Part shown: positions 2,252 to 61,416 of the stretch, piece by piece
Numbering within the stretch: position 1 is the stretch's first letter
Layout of the letters: every line of letters begins with the position of its first letter
Assembly (NCBI GenBank): GCA_963703275.1
Contig: OY969804.1
Span: 211,154-275,153, forward strand
Direction: 5' to 3'
From: an uncultured Actinomycetes bacterium
Lineage (GTDB): Bacteria > Actinomycetota > Thermoleophilia > Gaiellales > JAICJC01
Length of the DNA: 64,000 nucleotides
The notes under the pieces: model-generated
Database searches by the model: none
What the model saw: the letters and a program-made list of their open reading frames with translations, nothing else
What the model was told of the DNA's origin: nothing
Translations under genes and position numbers: made by a program

Positions 2252-3187
2252 CGCGGCGTTGCGGCTGCGCGTGGCGGGGACGGCCGTGCCGCCCAGGCGG
2301 TCGACGATGTCGTCGACTCGCTGCGTCAGCCGCGCGCGGGCGCCCGGTGTGGCGTATGACGCGGCGTACAGCGTGCGGTAGCGCTCGACCAGATCGGGCC
2401 GGTAGCCCTCGAGCCAGGGCATGAAGAGCTCGCGCACGCCCGGGCGCAGGTGCAGCAGGATCGGGCTGATCGAGACGGCGCCGGCCTCGAGGCACGCCTC
2501 GACCACCTCGGCCAGTTGCTCGGGGGCGTCGGACATGCCCGGCAGGACGGGCGCGATCAGGACGCCACAGGGGACGCCGGCGGCGTTCAGGCGCGCGACC
2601 GCCTCGACCCGCCGGCGCGGAGGCGGCGTGCCCGGCTCGCTGGCGTGCCACACGTCGTCGTCGAGGGTGCCGATCGAGAGGTTACAGCGCACAAGCCCAG
2701 CCTGGGCGGCGGCGGCCAGCAGGTCGAGGTCGCGCAGGATCATGGGCGACTTGGTCAGGATCGAGAACGGGTTCCTGGCCGTTGTCAGCTCGGTGATCAG
2801 CCCGCGTGTGAGCCGGTAGCGCCCCTCGGCGGGCTGGTAGGGGTCGGTGTTCGTGCCCATCGCGATGTGCTCGCCGCGCCAGCGCGGGTCGCGCAGCTCG
2901 GCCCGCAGCCGCTCGACGGCGTTCACCTTGACGACGATGCGGCGCTCGAAGTCGGCGCCGGCGTCCATGCCCAGGTACACGTGGGTGGGCCGGGCGAAGC
3001 AGTAGGTGCAGGCGTGCGCGCAGCCGCGGTAGGCGTTGATCGTGTACCGGAAGGGCATGCGCGAGGCCTCGGGGACGCGGTTGACGATCCGCTTGGCCCG
3101 CATGTGCAGGTACTCCACCTCGCGCAGCTCGCGACCGTCGCCCATGCCGTCGAGCTCGGGGAACAATGGCAGCTGGCCCGTGTCCAC
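2249..3187 (-). CDS. Radical SAM protein, Rv2578c / spore-photoproduct-lyase-like family
   Basis: INAYRGCAHACTYCFARP (CxxxCxxC) and TNTDPYQPAE. Start placed at GTG 3187, not ORF-track 3340, because a -10 box and LexA box lie just upstream. Confidence 0.9.
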   Translation of the reverse strand: MDTGQLPLFPELDGMGDGRELREVEYLHMRAKRIVNRVPEASRMPFRYTINAYRGCAHACTYCFARPTHVYLGMDAGADFERRIVVKVNAVERLRAELRDPRWRGEHIAMGTNTDPYQPAEGRYRLTRGLITELTTARNPFSILTKSPMILRDLDLLAAAAQAGLVRCNLSIGTLDDDVWHASEPGTPPPRRRVEAVARLNAAGVPCGVLIAPVLPGMSDAPEQLAEVVEACLEAGAVSISPILLHLRPGVRELFMPWLEGYRPDLVERYRTLYAASYATPGARARLTQRVDDIVDRLGGTAVPATRSRNAA

Positions 3188-3193
3188 CCTAGG

Positions 3194-3214
3194 AGTATAG
3201 CGAACATATGTTCG
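3194..3214 (-). promoter_or_regulatory. -10 box (TATACT) plus LexA/SOS box CGAACATATGTTCG
   Basis: Perfect GAAC-N4-GTTC palindrome at 3201-3214, next to minus-strand TATACT (3194-3199), which lies 6 nt before the GTG start. Confidence 0.85.
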
Positions 3215-3282
3215 TGAGATGATTGATCGGTAACTCCGCGCGCGCCTGGACGCCCGCAGGTCGTCTGTGGGTGGTTTCTGGT

Positions 3283-3459
3283 GGCGCTGCGGCTGCGAAC
3301 CGTCGCATCGCGCGTGAGGTGTCTGCGTGATCGCAGACACCTCACGACCGCCTCAAGGCTCCGCCTTGAGGCTTCTCGGTCGCGCCCATACGCTTAACCG
3401 GTATGAACGCTCCCTGCGTCCTTGCGCTGCTCGGTTCTCGCCGCCCAGGACATCACGGG
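3283..3459. repeat. About 177-bp structured dispersed repeat, copy 1
   Basis: About 90% identical by manual alignment to 43071-43246; three internal hairpins plus pairing ends. Confidence 0.9.
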
Positions 3460-3481
3460 AGCTACCGATCAGTCATCTGGG

Positions 3482-4936
3482 CTAGCGGAACAGCGAACTG
3501 CTGGCCGTGCGGGCGAGGTCGATCAGGGGCGCCGGGACGATGCCGAGGACGAGCGCCGCGAGCGCAGCCGCCGTCGCGGCGCCGGCCGCGAGGCCGTGGC
3601 CGGGCATGGCCTTTGCCTTCGGCACGGCCACCTCGCGGTCATACAGCGCGAAGGGCACGCGCAGGTAGTAGACCAGGCCGACCATGGTTGCGATCACGCC
3701 CGCGACGGCGAGGTACGTCTGCCCGTTCTGGACAGCGGCGGAGAAGACGTAGAGCTTGCCCAGGAAGCCGCCGGTGGGCGGGAACCCTGCGAGCGAGAGC
3801 ATGCACACGAGCATCGCGCCCCCGAGCAGCGGGCGCGTGTAGCCCCACCCGCCGAAGTCGGATACCAGCACCGGCCGGCCGATCTCACGCTCGCGCACGG
3901 CGACGATGCCGAAGGCGCCCAGGTTCATGGCGCCGTACACCGTCAGGTAGTACAGGAGCGCCTGCGTGCCGAGGGCGCTGTGTGCCGCGACCGCGGTCAG
4001 AAGGAAGCCGGAGTGGCCGACGGTGGAGTACGCCAGCATGCGCTTCACGTTCGACTGGCGCAGCGCGCCCAGGTTCCCGATCACGAACGAGGCGATGATG
4101 ATCGCGGCCAGGCCGATCTGCCAGACGTCGGACTGGCGCGGGAACGCGGTCACCAGCACCCGCAGGGCGAAGACGAGCGCAACCACCTTGGTGGCCGCCG
4201 ACATGAAGGCGGTCACCGGAGTCGGCGCGCCCTGGTACGCGTCCGGCGTCCACATGTGGAAGGGCGCGGCGTTGGCCTTGAACCCGAGCCCGACGATCAC
4301 CATCGCGAGTCCCATCAGCACCAGCACGTCGTGCGAATCGCCCTGAGCGAGGCCCGCCCGGATGCGGTCGAACTCGAGCTGGCCGCTCGCGCCGTAGGTG
4401 AGCGCCGCGCCGTAGAGCAGGAACGCCGCGCCCACCGATCCGATGATGAGGTACTTGAGCCCGCCCTCGAGCGACAGCACGTCGTCGGTATCGATTGCGA
4501 CCAGCACGTACAGCGCCAGCGAGAACAGCTCCAGGGCGACGAACGCGGTCACGAAGCTGTTCGACACCGCGAGCAGCGACATCCCGGCGGTCGCCGTCAG
4601 AAGCAGGACGTGATACTCGACGCTGCGCTCGCGCAGGTCGCCCATCCCCCACGAGTACGCCACCGCCACGAGCGCCGACACGTAGATGAGCATGCGGGCG
4701 CCCTCGCCGAACGCGTCGATCCGCAGGGTGTGGTCAAACGGCGCCCGCGCGGCGTCGTGGAAGGCGGCCCCCGCATAGACGGTGGCGGCGGCGAGGGCGA
4801 TCGCCGTGGCCGCCGCCGCAAGCCACCGGGCCTGCTTGTCGGGCAGGAAGACCCCCACCACGAGCAGCACCGCCGCGGTGCCGAGCAGGATGATCTCGGG
4901 GCCGATCGCCGTGAACGAGATGGGGATCGTGTGCAT
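3482..4936 (-). CDS. nuoN: NADH-quinone oxidoreductase subunit N
   Basis: Intact 484 aa; ALELFSL, LKYLIIGS, FKANAAPFHMWTPDAYQGAP, KRMLAYS. Confidence 0.95.
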   Translation of the reverse strand: MHTIPISFTAIGPEIILLGTAAVLLVVGVFLPDKQARWLAAAATAIALAAATVYAGAAFHDAARAPFDHTLRIDAFGEGARMLIYVSALVAVAYSWGMGDLRERSVEYHVLLLTATAGMSLLAVSNSFVTAFVALELFSLALYVLVAIDTDDVLSLEGGLKYLIIGSVGAAFLLYGAALTYGASGQLEFDRIRAGLAQGDSHDVLVLMGLAMVIVGLGFKANAAPFHMWTPDAYQGAPTPVTAFMSAATKVVALVFALRVLVTAFPRQSDVWQIGLAAIIIASFVIGNLGALRQSNVKRMLAYSTVGHSGFLLTAVAAHSALGTQALLYYLTVYGAMNLGAFGIVAVREREIGRPVLVSDFGGWGYTRPLLGGAMLVCMLSLAGFPPTGGFLGKLYVFSAAVQNGQTYLAVAGVIATMVGLVYYLRVPFALYDREVAVPKAKAMPGHGLAAGAATAAALAALVLGIVPAPLIDLARTASSSLFR

Positions 4937-6393: not shown

Positions 6394-8289
6394 AGCGTCG
6401 CCCTCGACAGGAAGTAGGCGCCCAGCACCACCGCGCCGGCCACGAGCGCCGTTGCGTACAGCCGCACGACGCCGGTCTGGGCGGCGACGGTGGCGCGGGC
6501 GAGCATCCGCACCAGATACGCGACCAGGCCGACCGTCCCCCAGATCACCCAGCGCTCGAAGAACCGGTACAGCGACGAGGCGACCACCGCGGCGGGCAGG
6601 TACGCGATCTTGTCGTACAGCTCATCCCAGTAGAACTTGTGCGCCGCCACCACGGCCAGCCCGGTGAAGGGGCGCTTGAGCCGCTCGAGCAGCTCCGGGT
6701 GCGTGTAGGCACGCCATGTCAGGAGCGCGCCGCCGCCGCCGAGCGTCCACGCGATCGCCGTCGTGACGAGGTCGCGGTCGGTGGACGCCACGATCGTCGG
6801 CGCCGTGTGGCCGAGCCACCTCGAGAAGATGTCGCTGATCCCGAAGCCGATGTCGAGCAGACCGGCGACGAGCGTCCCGGCCGCCAGGATCGCCACCGGC
6901 CAGAACATCTCCCACGGGGCCTCGCCGTGCTCGGTGTGCAGGTGCTCGGACGCATACTGGGAGCGCTCGCCGTAGAAGGTGAGCCGCATCAGCCGGGTGG
7001 CGTAGATGCCGGTGAAGAAGGTGCCCACCAGGCCTCCGACCCACACGATGATGGCGGTGGTGCTGTCCTTCTGCAGCGCCGCCGACAGCACCTCGTCCTT
7101 GCTGAGCGGCCAGAAGCCGACGAGCGCCACGGTGCCGATCCACATGAGCCACTTCGTCCGCGGCAGCGCCGAGCCGAGGCCGCCCATCCGGCGCACGTCC
7201 TGCTCGCCGCCGAGGGCATGGATGACGATGCCGGCGCCGAGGAAGAGCAGCGCCTTGAAGAAGGCGTGGGCGAGCAGGTGGAACATGCCGGCGCCCCACG
7301 CGCCCAGCCCAACGGCTGTGAACATGTAGCCGATCTGGGACATCGTCGAGTAGGCGATGACGCGCTTGATGTCGGTCTGCACAATGGCGATCACGCCCGC
7401 CATCAGCAGCGTGGCGGCGCCGATCAGCGCGATCAGAACCTCGATGTCGGGCGCGAGGATGAACAGCGCGTGGGCGCGGGCGATCAGGTAGACGCCGGCG
7501 GTCACCATCGTGGCGGCGTGGATCAGCGCGGAGACCGGGGTCGGGCCCTCCATGGCGTCGGGAAGCCAGGTGTGGAGCGGGATCTGCGCCGACTTCGCCA
7601 GCGCGCCCAGCAGCAGGAGCCCGGCCACCAGTTGGCATCGGCCGAGCCCTTCGGCCAGTGGGCGGACGCCGTGTGGAACACGGTGGCGTAGTTCGTCGTG
7701 CCCAGATCGCGGGCCATGAAGAAGACGGCCAGGATGATGCCGACGTCGCCGATCGCGTTCATCACGAACGCCTTCTTGGCGGCGGCGACCGGCTCGGGGC
7801 GCTCGTGGTAGAACCCGATCAGGAGGTAGCGACGAGAGCCCGACCATGCCCCAGCCGGCCAGCAGCAGCACGAAGTTCGCGGCCATGACGAGGAGCAGCA
7901 TCGAGAAGAGGAACAGCGACATGTAGGCGAAGTAGCGGCGCTCCTCGTCCTCGCCGTCCATGTAGCCGACCGAGTAGGCGACGATCAGCGAGCCGACCCC
8001 GGCGACGATCAGCATCATCGGTCACCGCTGAGCGGGTCGATCAGCACCGAATCGGCACCTTGAACGTCAGCGACGCCGCCCACGTGTAGGCGGTGTACGT
8101 GTGCGACCGGTGGCTCGCCCCCTCGCCGAGGACCGCGATGAACGCGCCGACCGCGGCGGCGAACGCGACAAATGCGAACGCCGTGCCCGCCCATGCCGCC
8201 GCCTGGCGCGAGATCCGCGACCCGGCCAGGGTCAGGACGACGACGCCGACGAGCGGCGCGAGCAGGCAGATCCAGGCCAGTGCTTCCAT
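6390..8289 (-). CDS. nuoL: NADH-quinone oxidoreductase subunit L (apparent frameshifts in 5' half)
   Basis: KSAQIPLHTWLPDAMEGPTPVSALIHAATMVTAGVYL, HAFFKALLFL; N-terminus MEALAWICLL at ATG 8289 is in a different frame. Confidence 0.9.
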
Positions 8290-42552: not shown

Positions 42553-43013
42553 CCCACAGCGTCGCTCCGCCGCACCATCACGTCGTCGGCTTTGTTGCCG
42601 GTCCAGATCCCGATCTTGTTGCTATCGGGGTAGACGCTGGCCGCTGTCTTGCTCTTGGTCGAGGCCATCAGCACCCTGACCGTGTCGGGGGTGCGGTTGC
42701 GCACCGCGTGTGCGCCTTCGGGGCCCTCGGGGAAGCAGATCACGTCACACGGCTCGAGCTCGTCCTCGCCCTCGGGATGGCGCAGCGTCGGCCGGCCCTG
42801 AAGCACGATCAGCCACTCCTCGTCGCCATATTCGTAGTGATACGGGCAGATCGCCTGGCCGGGCGGGAGCTCGTACACGCTGATGCCGAACAGGGCGCCG
42901 CCGATCAGCGGGCCGATGCGCAGCATCCCGGCCCGGAATCCCTCGGGATCGTCGCCGTCGTAGGCGAAGGCGGGGTCGGCGATGTTGAGCCTCCGCCTGG
43001 AGAGATGGGTCAT
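42513..43013 (-). CDS. Cupin domain protein
   Basis: PYHYEYGDEEWLIVLQG...GAHAVRN...YPDSNKI. Confidence 0.85.
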   Translation of the reverse strand: MTHLSRRRLNIADPAFAYDGDDPEGFRAGMLRIGPLIGGALFGISVYELPPGQAICPYHYEYGDEEWLIVLQGRPTLRHPEGEDELEPCDVICFPEGPEGAHAVRNRTPDTVRVLMASTKSKTAASVYPDSNKIGIWTGNKADDVMVRRSDAVGYWVDEPKGSETT

Positions 43014-43070
43014 CCCCAGCCCCCGCGCGCCCGGCCGCCGCCCACGGCGGTGGAGAGGCAGCAGACTGGC

Positions 43071-43246
43071 GGCGCTGCGGCTGCGAACTGTCGCCTCGCG
43101 CGTGGTGCGTCTGCGTAATCGCAGACGCACCACGACCGCCTCAAGGCTCCGCCTTGACGCTTCTCGGTCGCGCCCATACTTGAACCAGTATGAACGCTCC
43201 CTGCGTCCTTGCGATGCTCGGTTCTCGCCGCCCGGGCCATCACGGG
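43071..43246. repeat. About 176-bp structured dispersed repeat, copy 2
   Basis: Direct copy of 3283-3459 with compensatory stem changes. Confidence 0.9.
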
Positions 43247-43263
43247 GATTGGGGATAACCCAT

Positions 43264-43656
43264 CTAGGCCTCCCATGCTCCGACCTCGTAGGCCGCCCCC
43301 ACGGGCGCGCCGATAACGATCAGCGTGGTCGGCGTGGCGGTCGACTCGAACGTGCGCCTGACCGCGGGCTCGCAGGCGACCATCCCGCCCGCGGGCACGG
43401 TGGTGCGCTCGCCGTCGAGCGTTGCCGCCACCTCGCCGGCGTGGACGAAGTAGAGCTCCTGCTGGCCGGACTCCGTCTCGTCGTGCTCGGGGATGAGCAC
43501 CTTCCCGGCGTCCTTGGTGACCGCGTTCACGCCGAATGCGGTGATGCCGAAGTGGTGGCGGACTGACTTCCACGTAGCCGGCCAATCGGGCTTGACGGGC
43601 GGAATCTCGTTCACCTCGTCGATCTGCCAGCCGGCGCCCTTCGCTGCGACGCTCAT
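43264..43656 (-). CDS. Cupin-like protein
   Basis: HFGITAFGVNA, EHDE...QELYFV; AGGAG SD. Confidence 0.75.
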   Translation of the reverse strand: MSVAAKGAGWQIDEVNEIPPVKPDWPATWKSVRHHFGITAFGVNAVTKDAGKVLIPEHDETESGQQELYFVHAGEVAATLDGERTTVPAGGMVACEPAVRRTFESTATPTTLIVIGAPVGAAYEVGAWEA

Positions 43657-61250: not shown

Positions 61251-61385
61251 AACTTCAAATGACACCTGCTCCACACGCCAAATGGCGTGTCCCAGGGTGG
61301 CCTCCGGAGGGCGGGCCAGAACTCGGGCGGAGGGGACATCCAAACCTCAAATGACACCTGCTGCACACGCCAAGTGGCGCGTCCC
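61251..61385. repeat. Two 43-bp direct repeats with internal palindrome, period 92 bp
   Basis: 61251-61293 and 61343-61385, 4 mismatches; ACACGCCA-NN-TGGCG(T/C)GT core. Confidence 0.85.
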
Positions 61386-61416
61386 GGGCCAGGGCTGCCG
61401 GCGTCGACGGCCACCC

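Follow-up and report, generated by a model that had tools for sequence, protein, structure and literature searches.

Two palindromic elements in the window

The window, which is the whole 64-kb stretch of DNA that was analysed, contains two copies of a palindromic repeat, called copies A and B here. Copy A is located between the stop codon of nuoN (3482-3484) and the SOS box and start of an SPL-like radical SAM gene; two cupin genes enclose copy B. The earlier note had described both as a 177-bp element (3283-3459 and 43071-43246) with about 17 differences, and global alignment of these segments gave this very number (16 mismatches and one gap). Homology and the terminal inverted repeat reach further, to 3218-3477 for copy A (260 bp, minus strand) and 43004-43264 for copy B (261 bp, minus strand), and the 177 bp are the inner part only. 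These limits come from inverted-repeat extension and from nhmmer (with the family profile for copy A), and the orthologous junction of copy A is empty in relatives.

The terminal arms of copy A, GATGATTGATCGGTAACTCCG (3218-3238) and GGGAGCTACCGATCAGTCATC (3457-3477), pair with each other, and the corresponding family columns (1-19 and 201-218) covary. Between them, in plus coordinates of the minus-strand element, are a variable region (3247-3282), which is little conserved in the family alignments, C/A-rich on the minus strand and mostly unpaired in the minus-strand fold; the first part of a conserved core (3283-3312), which carries arms of the helices P1 (GCGAACCG/CGGUUCGC) and P2; an optional two-hairpin module of ~63 bp (3313-3374), which is absent from the basic form of ~200 bp; and the second part of the core (3375-3447) with hairpin 3 (3382-3410) and the near-invariant CTCCCTGCGTCCTTGCG. 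The module consists of a 14-bp stem (3314-3345) and the CCTCAAGGC hairpin (3351-3371), and stands in place of one of two AGGACGC loop motifs. A covariance model of the core (R1) matches copy A at 3349-3440 with 57.6 bits. Copy B has the arms GATGGGTCATCCCCAGCCCCC (43004-43024) and GGGGATTGGGGATAACCCATC (43244-43264), both found by inverted-repeat extension, the module at 43101-43162 (minus strand; stem 43102-43133, hairpin 43139-43159), and the second part of the core with hairpin 3 at 43163-43234 (minus strand; R1 match 43137-43227, 60 bits). Thus both belong to the one-module form of the family described below.

The local structures that had been read from the two copies were all found again. 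The 14-bp stem is GTGAGGTGTCTGCG-TGAT-CGCAGACACCTCAC in copy A and GTGGTGCGTCTGCG-TAAT-CGCAGACGCACCAC in copy B, with three changes that are compensated on the opposite arm, and the CCTCAAGGC hairpin, the CATAC hairpin and the GAAC/GTTC pairing are present as claimed. Over their full length, A and B are only 80% identical because the outer stems differ between the copies; the two arms of each copy stay complementary. Their flanks are unrelated, and no other long repeat joins the two regions. Searching the 64-kb window with the core covariance model, filters off, detected no further diverged copies besides A and B.

Both copies are closely engaged with the signals of their neighbours. The TAG stop codon of the gene upstream of copy B (130-aa cupin; 43264-43266) is made of the last base of the element (43264) and two flank bases, and the ATG of the downstream gene (166-aa cupin; 43013-43011) is inside the left terminal arm (ATGACCCATC, minus strand); therefore, the element supplies or preserves both translation signals. 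Copy B is the same in five independent long-read assemblies of one species, and is thus fixed in that species. Copy A ends 3 nt from the SOS box, indicating that its insertion replaced the sequence at the former -35 position. Both copies, the one next to the SOS box and the other carrying a cupin start codon, may affect the expression of their neighbours. The SOS box itself is a LexA/SOS-box-type palindrome, CGAACATATGTTCG (3201-3214), with a TATACT-like -10 after it; both precede the SPL-like radical SAM gene, which starts with GTG at 3187 (minus strand). The box is kept in all relatives (including L122-L131) down to 63% protein identity.

A repeat family of soil Thermoleophilia

A family scan with the exact 22-base pattern CTGCGTCCTTGCGNNGCTCGGTTC, one genome per species, gave at least 115 places in about 29 MAGs among the matches listed, several MAGs having 10 or more. 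All of the listed matches are in Gaiellales, Gaiellaceae, Thermoleophilaceae or unclassified 'Actinomycetes' soil MAGs. This pattern was used to choose all family members other than the core-only extras, and it partly fixes the 3' half of the core, so that conservation is subject to ascertainment bias there; the 5' half, GCGTCCTCGGTCG, is free of this bias and is >90% conserved.

At its ends, the element has a conserved terminus of 11 bp, GATGRTTGAT. Next, going inward, come an inner stem whose sequence varies but whose arms match each other in every copy, subterminal boxes that are conserved, a spacer of ~35 nt that evolves fast, and the near-invariant core of ~95 nt. The terminal stem, measured by outward inverted-repeat extension of each copy, is 20-30 bp (21-30 in the window copies), starting with GATGRTTGAT and ending with ATCAAYCATC; an arm pair of 20-30 bp was found in 107 of 117 copies, and most of the others are cut by the end of the locus. 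The basic form has 196-207 bp; with one 63-bp module the length is about 260 bp, with two about 320 bp and with three 377 bp. This module was seen solely within the element (24 of 24 cases), in a constant relative orientation and at three preferred positions. No conserved ORF was found in the element, the ORFs from the terminal ATG differing in length and frame. Neither sigma-70-type promoter nor T-tract terminator consensus was found within the elements, and no terminator-like site is located at the minus-strand 3' end of copies A and B. An intrinsic terminator was rejected on this point, each of the two copies being a GC-rich hairpin without a U/T tract.

The 8-kb loci around the copies contain about 6-8 extra copies per 0.8-0.95 Mb besides the anchoring ones, and the window contains 2 in 64 kb; therefore, a genome is expected to carry tens of copies. 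The core covariance model, run over 776 kb of loci, found nothing beyond the nhmmer matches. When contigs of soil metagenomes and metatranscriptomes were placed on 3100-3640, depth was 150-370 over 3271-3312 and 3404-3460 and 0-12 over the flanks, and in soil metagenomes the element ends were 30-100 times deeper than the flanks. Most foreign contigs skip 3312-3375. This profile indicates a widespread family with a variable middle. Words of the element were present in at least 18 metatranscriptome runs, in unstranded contigs and with DNA contamination of the RNA libraries possible. The Logan short-read contig of the cupin gene (L006) stops inside copy B, at hairpin 3, consistent with a repeat that breaks short-read assemblies. 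Because it breaks assemblies and dominates depth in soil metagenomes and metatranscriptomes, the repeat should be masked or modelled in binning, annotation and quantification.

We found no match to a described family. Rfam 15, with its ncRNA, riboswitch, ribozyme, HEARO/omega RNA and other models, gave no match at the gathering score in the window (best sub-threshold hit 20 bits, cutoff 44), and in four other loci nothing reached E<=0.5. Plasmids contained no match to a typical copy by BLAST, and viral contigs gave none to the core pattern. Thermoleophilia (Gaiellales) are among the most abundant soil actinobacteria and are almost uncultured. To our knowledge, their non-coding DNA is unstudied, and our search for publications on repeats in Gaiellales/Thermoleophilia found none.

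Covariation and the folding strand

In folding stability, both strands of copies A and B far exceed dinucleotide shuffles, z being about -7 for A and about -4.5 for B. Among 76 unique short copies, the terminal stem showed 20-41 double changes per column, and hairpin 3 covaried as well. A set of 73 copies was realigned in the complementary orientation and compared with a named structure of 61 pairs. In this structure, 96.6% of the cells pair and 35 of the 61 pairs have changed on both sides; the covariation score was 0.291, vs 0.117 for column shuffles (0 of 500 reached the observed score) and 0.04-0.07 for slid partners. The selected structure claimed in the earlier note, for which covariation in a larger alignment had been named as the check, is thus well borne out, but on the minus strand of the window and not on the plus strand as it had been described.

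Several observations point to this strand. The non-Watson-Crick cells are A.C and C.A on the strand of the earlier note and G.U on its complement. On the minus-orientation strand, there were 331 G.U vs 33 A.C cells (34 columns vs 4 in the same direction), the minimum free energy was lower in 83 of 100 copies (mean 7.8 kcal/mol), and the composition-controlled z-score was lower in 27 of 30 (-6.9 vs -4.9); as the copies are related by descent, these counts are not independent of each other, though their direction agrees from helix to helix and between subfamilies. At four positions, most copies have G.U. For nuoN, the radical SAM gene and the two cupin genes of the window, this is the sense strand.

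The transcript is predicted to fold into a long stem-loop. The outer part of the predicted rod consists of the terminal stem, the paired subterminal boxes and the C/A-rich unpaired spacer, and the inner part of helix P1, P2, a 13x13 internal loop that has AGGACGC on either side, and hairpin 3, which has two conserved G.U pairs. It is the 3' AGGACGC motif whose place the module has taken in the window copies.

Insertion sites and signs of mobility

The junction of nuoN and the radical SAM gene has no element in seven metagenome contigs (L122-L127 and L193), in which the radical SAM protein is 82-88% identical and nuoN is directly upstream. Between the nuoN stop codon and the conserved SOS box, these contigs have 27-130 nt of unrelated spacer. 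In the comparison with empty sites that the earlier note had called for, the junction does occur without the element, but the spacers of empty and filled sites cannot be aligned base by base and an exact target duplication cannot be read from them. The nuoN/SOS-box spacer is a hot spot for several repeat families: where our element is missing, it has one or two copies of CCGCCAAAAGGGGTCAGACCCCTCTTGGCGG in L124-L127 and L193, and another short palindromic repeat, the pair GGTGCCTGACACC/GGTGCCAGGCACC, in L122.

Orientation relative to the two neighbour genes is random in the family, namely 27 (+,+), 25 (+,-), 23 (-,+) and 19 (-,-). The same orientation relative to transcription, which the earlier note had stated, is correct for the two window copies but does not extend to the family. 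Relative to local GC skew, a weak proxy, the ratio was 50:49, with no sign of a replication-linked bias. No recurrent class of neighbour gene was found, the neighbours being unrelated. The earlier note had offered an ncRNA or a cis-element as possibilities. With random orientation, no constant neighbour and no promoter or terminator consensus, neither a single dedicated ncRNA gene nor an orientation-fixed cis-regulator is supported. Orientation and the unrelated neighbours also speak against a cis-regulatory RNA specific to one gene, which was rejected. Some copies have suffered internal deletions and kept both termini (L064, 86 bp; L078, 139 bp; L023, 158 bp).

The flanks are biased toward (C)TA on the left (A at -1 in 93%, T at -2 in 68% and C at -3 in 57%) and TA(G) on the right (T at +1 in 77%, A at +2 in 59% and G at +3 in 63%). 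Of 100 copies, 32 have TA on both sides and 22 have CTA/TAG. Several placements of the boundary (TA, CT, CTAG or no duplication) fit these data because CTAG is a palindrome. CTAG is rare in the window, 13 observed vs 166 expected (about 13-fold rarer), and TA is about 2-fold rarer than expected (628 vs 1301). Most CTAG sites in the window resemble stop-codon contexts. In about one third of the copies, the stop codon of the neighbour is exactly at the boundary, TAG being composed of the TA flank and the first G of the element.

Three sites are common to different species. Their cores are 97-100% identical, their flanks 76-89% and their spacers 45-60%, and the arms have paired changes. Selection in place is suggested by these values but not conclusively, gene conversion and independent insertions into the same rare CTAG being the alternatives.

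We searched the loci for a source of movement. Looking for extra occurrences of the terminus in 958 kb of loci around copies revealed no autonomous IS with these ends, and neither a transposase nor any other protein recurs near the copies in these loci. The genes between paired copies encode an aminotransferase or ABC permeases, and no transposase. Of the three options listed in the earlier note, a non-autonomous mobile element is best supported, by multiple copies, terminal inverted repeats, TA flanks, an empty orthologous site, random orientation and internal deletions.

The core in other shells

The core also occurs without the GATGRTTGAT shell, within other closing stems. It is located between atpA and atpG in L095 and between two ABC permease genes in L101. 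In L104, a Thermoleophilaceae MAG, it comes immediately behind ftsZ (about 7090-7200, minus strand). The closing stem in L104, ATTCCGCGCTGA/TCAGCGCGGAAT, is formed by the end of ftsZ and its inverted copy, and includes the last three ftsZ codons and the stop codon. L098 has three core copies in the S10/spc ribosomal-protein operon (1063-1151, 2033-2126 and 4515-4610), at the junctions rpsN|rpsH, rplX|rplE and rpsC|rplP, each with a different outer stem. These junctions are empty, with 0-10 nt, in relatives with 92-98% identical S8 (L202-L212). Each copy in L098 has its own Shine-Dalgarno sequence, GGAGGTGA, just before the downstream ATG, and is bordered on either side by T[GA]ATG, corresponding to the stop/start overlap at the empty site. 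In the same operon, S17 (rpsQ) of L098 (2931-3863), like the 301-335-aa genes in L202-L210, is apparently fused to an N-terminal extension of ~200 residues; the S17 extension in Gaiellaceae-like genomes is of low complexity and Ala/Glu/Pro-rich.

The secY/adk junction was found in three states: a short spacer (L205 and L209), a 45-nt hairpin (L202:8455-8520), and the hairpin of L202 whose apex carries a core unit of 120 nt, bordered by TCG on either side (L208:8480-8640). Together with the other shells, these states indicate that the core acts as an insertion unit of its own and that the TA-flanked element may be a composite that was amplified later. A shell-only form of the main element, searched by the subterminal box, gave only chance matches in coding sequence.

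The sense strand of the operon copies has z of -1.2 to -2.4 and the antisense strand -5.3 to -7.4, i.e., the well-folding strand is antisense to the genes. The likeliest explanation is that in these essential operons selection tolerates only the weakly folding orientation. We considered that the 3' arm might sequester the downstream Shine-Dalgarno sequence on the sense strand, and dropped this idea since that strand is barely structured in the operon copies.

Origin and movement of the family

Judging from the above, we consider it probable (roughly 0.6) that the element represents a previously undescribed family of non-autonomous, palindromic MITE/ERIC-like repeats of soil Gaiellales/Thermoleophilia and that the window copies are old insertions. 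The transposase that moved the copies would have acted in trans and inserted them at the TA of the rare CTAG, as IS630/Tc1-mariner or IS5/IS427-type enzymes do; such an insertion preference would account for the many copies that abut stop codons. Once inserted, a copy would be read through with its neighbours. Both window copies have their structured strand in sense, so that the 3' end of nuoN and the spacer of the cupin genes should carry a double-stranded rod of ~260 nt. By analogy, such a rod could be a 3'-end protector, a processing site for RNase III/E or a U-less terminator; there is precedent in the orientation-dependent effects of ERIC and Correia RNA (PMC2229807). Both the mobilising enzyme and the role of the element at the RNA level are what we infer from the sequences.

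A DDE transposase does not explain the covarying inner arms, the strand-specific fold with conserved G.U pairs, or the core that is common to different shells. These three features keep alive two other explanations, single-strand or RNA-directed mobility that nests hairpins in one another and a host RNA function of the core, which jointly take about one third of the likelihood. According to the first, the core of ~95-120 nt is the real unit; it folds on one strand, was moved as single-stranded DNA or with an RNA guide into the apices of hairpins, and the TA-flanked unit of 200-260 bp is a composite amplified later. Candidate systems are REPIN/RAYT-like, IS200/IS605-PATE-like and IS110/bridge-RNA-like. 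The conserved G.U pairs on one strand fit this idea, as do the same core inside the unrelated outer stems of L095, L098, L101 and L104, the core near-invariant across orders next to a diverging spacer, and the three core copies of the ribosomal-protein operon that are missing in relatives with nearly identical S8. The L202 hairpin alone and the L208 hairpin with the core at its tip also suggest such an insertion, but can equally be read as a deletion.

We nevertheless regard this explanation as unlikely. The orientation bias expected of IS200/IS605-type transposons is not seen relative to local GC skew, a weak proxy, and neither a Y1/RAYT nor an IS110 gene was seen beside any of the copies. 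In the 8-kb loci, we saw neither a Y1/RAYT gene flanked by repeats nor a REP-like doublet, and paired copies flank no transposase; a REPIN/RAYT system was therefore rejected as far as these loci go. An IS110-type bridge-RNA element was rejected as well: no recombinase gene, which would be of the DEDD type, was seen near copies in the loci, and, as read from the alignments, no complement of the AGGACGC loop motif is present at the termini or in the CTAG flanks, unlike the guides of bridge RNAs, which are complementary to the element ends and the target.

Slightly less likely is a structured RNA of the host, either an sRNA family or a cis-acting module that, e.g., binds a protein or the ribosome via the two AGGACGC/GGGAG loops, its spread being secondary. 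The very strong covariation and the internal-loop sequence, near-invariant across Gaiellales and Thermoleophilaceae, would be expected of such an RNA. The conserved core at the common sites could be expected of it too, although these sites may be independent insertions into rare CTAG targets, and so could the element words in metatranscriptomes, although DNA may contaminate those libraries. The closing stem made from the host's own last ftsZ codons is another point for it. On the other hand, orientation relative to genes is random, promoter and terminator consensus are missing, tens of copies per genome share no neighbour, and the insertion is polymorphic at the nuoN/radical-SAM and ribosomal-protein junctions. 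Moreover, one of the two loop motifs has given way to the module in the window copies, and the operon copies are sense on the poorly folding strand.

That chance or segmentally duplicated GC-rich palindromes, or intrinsic terminators, occur here without any family (GC-rich genomes hold many stable hairpins, and both copies are just downstream of stop codons) has practically no chance of being right and is refuted by the at least 115 related copies elsewhere and by covariation far above the controls, as well as disfavoured by the lack of a T-tract and the unrelated flanks of A and B.

Finally, we think it rather unlikely that the core is a new class of strand-specific functional nucleic-acid module, conserved across Thermoleophilia, with the MITE only its vehicle. 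If so, it would serve for recognition or as a guide in an as yet unrecognised mobility system, single-strand or RNA-directed, that places hairpins inside hairpins, or else be a host RNA that binds a conserved factor, and it would colonise ribosomal-protein operons by means of its own Shine-Dalgarno sequence and a duplicated stop/start overlap.

Comparison with known repeat families

Returning to the MITE/ERIC-like family that we favour, bacterial MITEs are defined as small, non-coding and dispersed, with terminal inverted repeats, TA termini and a target-site duplication, filled and empty sites at one locus and transcripts that form a long stem-loop, A+T-rich and usually <200 bp (PMC2229807). 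The Gaiellales element is likewise dispersed and non-coding, has terminal inverted repeats and a long stem-loop as its predicted transcript fold, and occurs in filled and empty sites. Unlike classical bacterial MITEs, it is larger (200-380 bp) and GC-rich, with 66% G+C in a genome of 71% G+C.

The ERIC (IRU/RU-1; 127 bp) sequences resemble it: each is an imperfect palindrome of intergenic, non-coding DNA, is bounded by terminal inverted repeats and TA, and occurs in either orientation, with a long co-transcribed stem-loop (predicted here), no known transposase, and a sequence conserved across genera. ERIC affects neighbouring mRNA in an orientation-dependent way (PMC2229807). The two are unrelated in sequence, and the Gaiellales element belongs to another phylum. 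It differs from ERIC in its length (about 200-380 bp) and 66% G+C, in its terminal stem of 20-30 bp with an inner half that is variable yet covaries, in its ~95-nt core that also occurs in other shells, and in its preference for CTAG at stop codons. Larger ERIC variants with internal insertions have reportedly been described.

Correia/NEMIS of Neisseria is similar in having TA-flanked long terminal inverted repeats (about 24 bp) and size classes that differ by an internal block. Its sizes are 107 bp and, with a 50-bp insert, 155 bp, and its transcript hairpins are cleaved by RNase III (PMC2229807). However, the terminal repeats of Correia are constant, with promoter and IHF motifs, while the inner arms of the Gaiellales element vary and no promoter consensus was found in it. 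RUP of S. pneumoniae and other IS630-derived MITEs share the TA target and flanks, a size of about 100-200 bp and the proposed mobilisation in trans, and RUP is listed with roughly a hundred copies per genome (PMC2229807). The parent IS of RUP, with matching ends, is IS630-Spn1, whereas no parent of the Gaiellales element was found in 958 kb of loci.

REPINs are said to be long hairpins with tens to hundreds of intergenic copies and compensatory changes in the arms, whose single-strand fold is thought to be important. The Gaiellales element is likewise a multi-copy intergenic long hairpin with compensatory arm changes, but a REPIN measures about 100 nt, is a doublet of short REP palindromes and is associated with a RAYT gene that has REPs on either side, and the TA flanks belong to the Gaiellales element and not to REPINs. 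MIRUs of mycobacteria are reportedly intergenic repeats inside operons whose ends give overlapping stop and start codons. Corresponding signals of the Gaiellales element are TAGATG (main ends) and T[GA]ATG (next to the operon copies); in contrast, MIRUs are 40-100-bp tandem minisatellites of fixed orientation and are not palindromic.

A new GC-rich palindromic repeat that targets stop codons, has strong strand-specific covariation and is built of modules (shell, core and insert module) is a good system for studying the movement of such elements and their possible use by hosts as RNA insulators. Apart from this family, the window contains two 46-nt direct repeats (61251-61296 and 61343-61388; AACTTCAAATGACACCTGC...CCAAATGGCGTGTCCCAGG), which are 89% identical and 92 nt apart.
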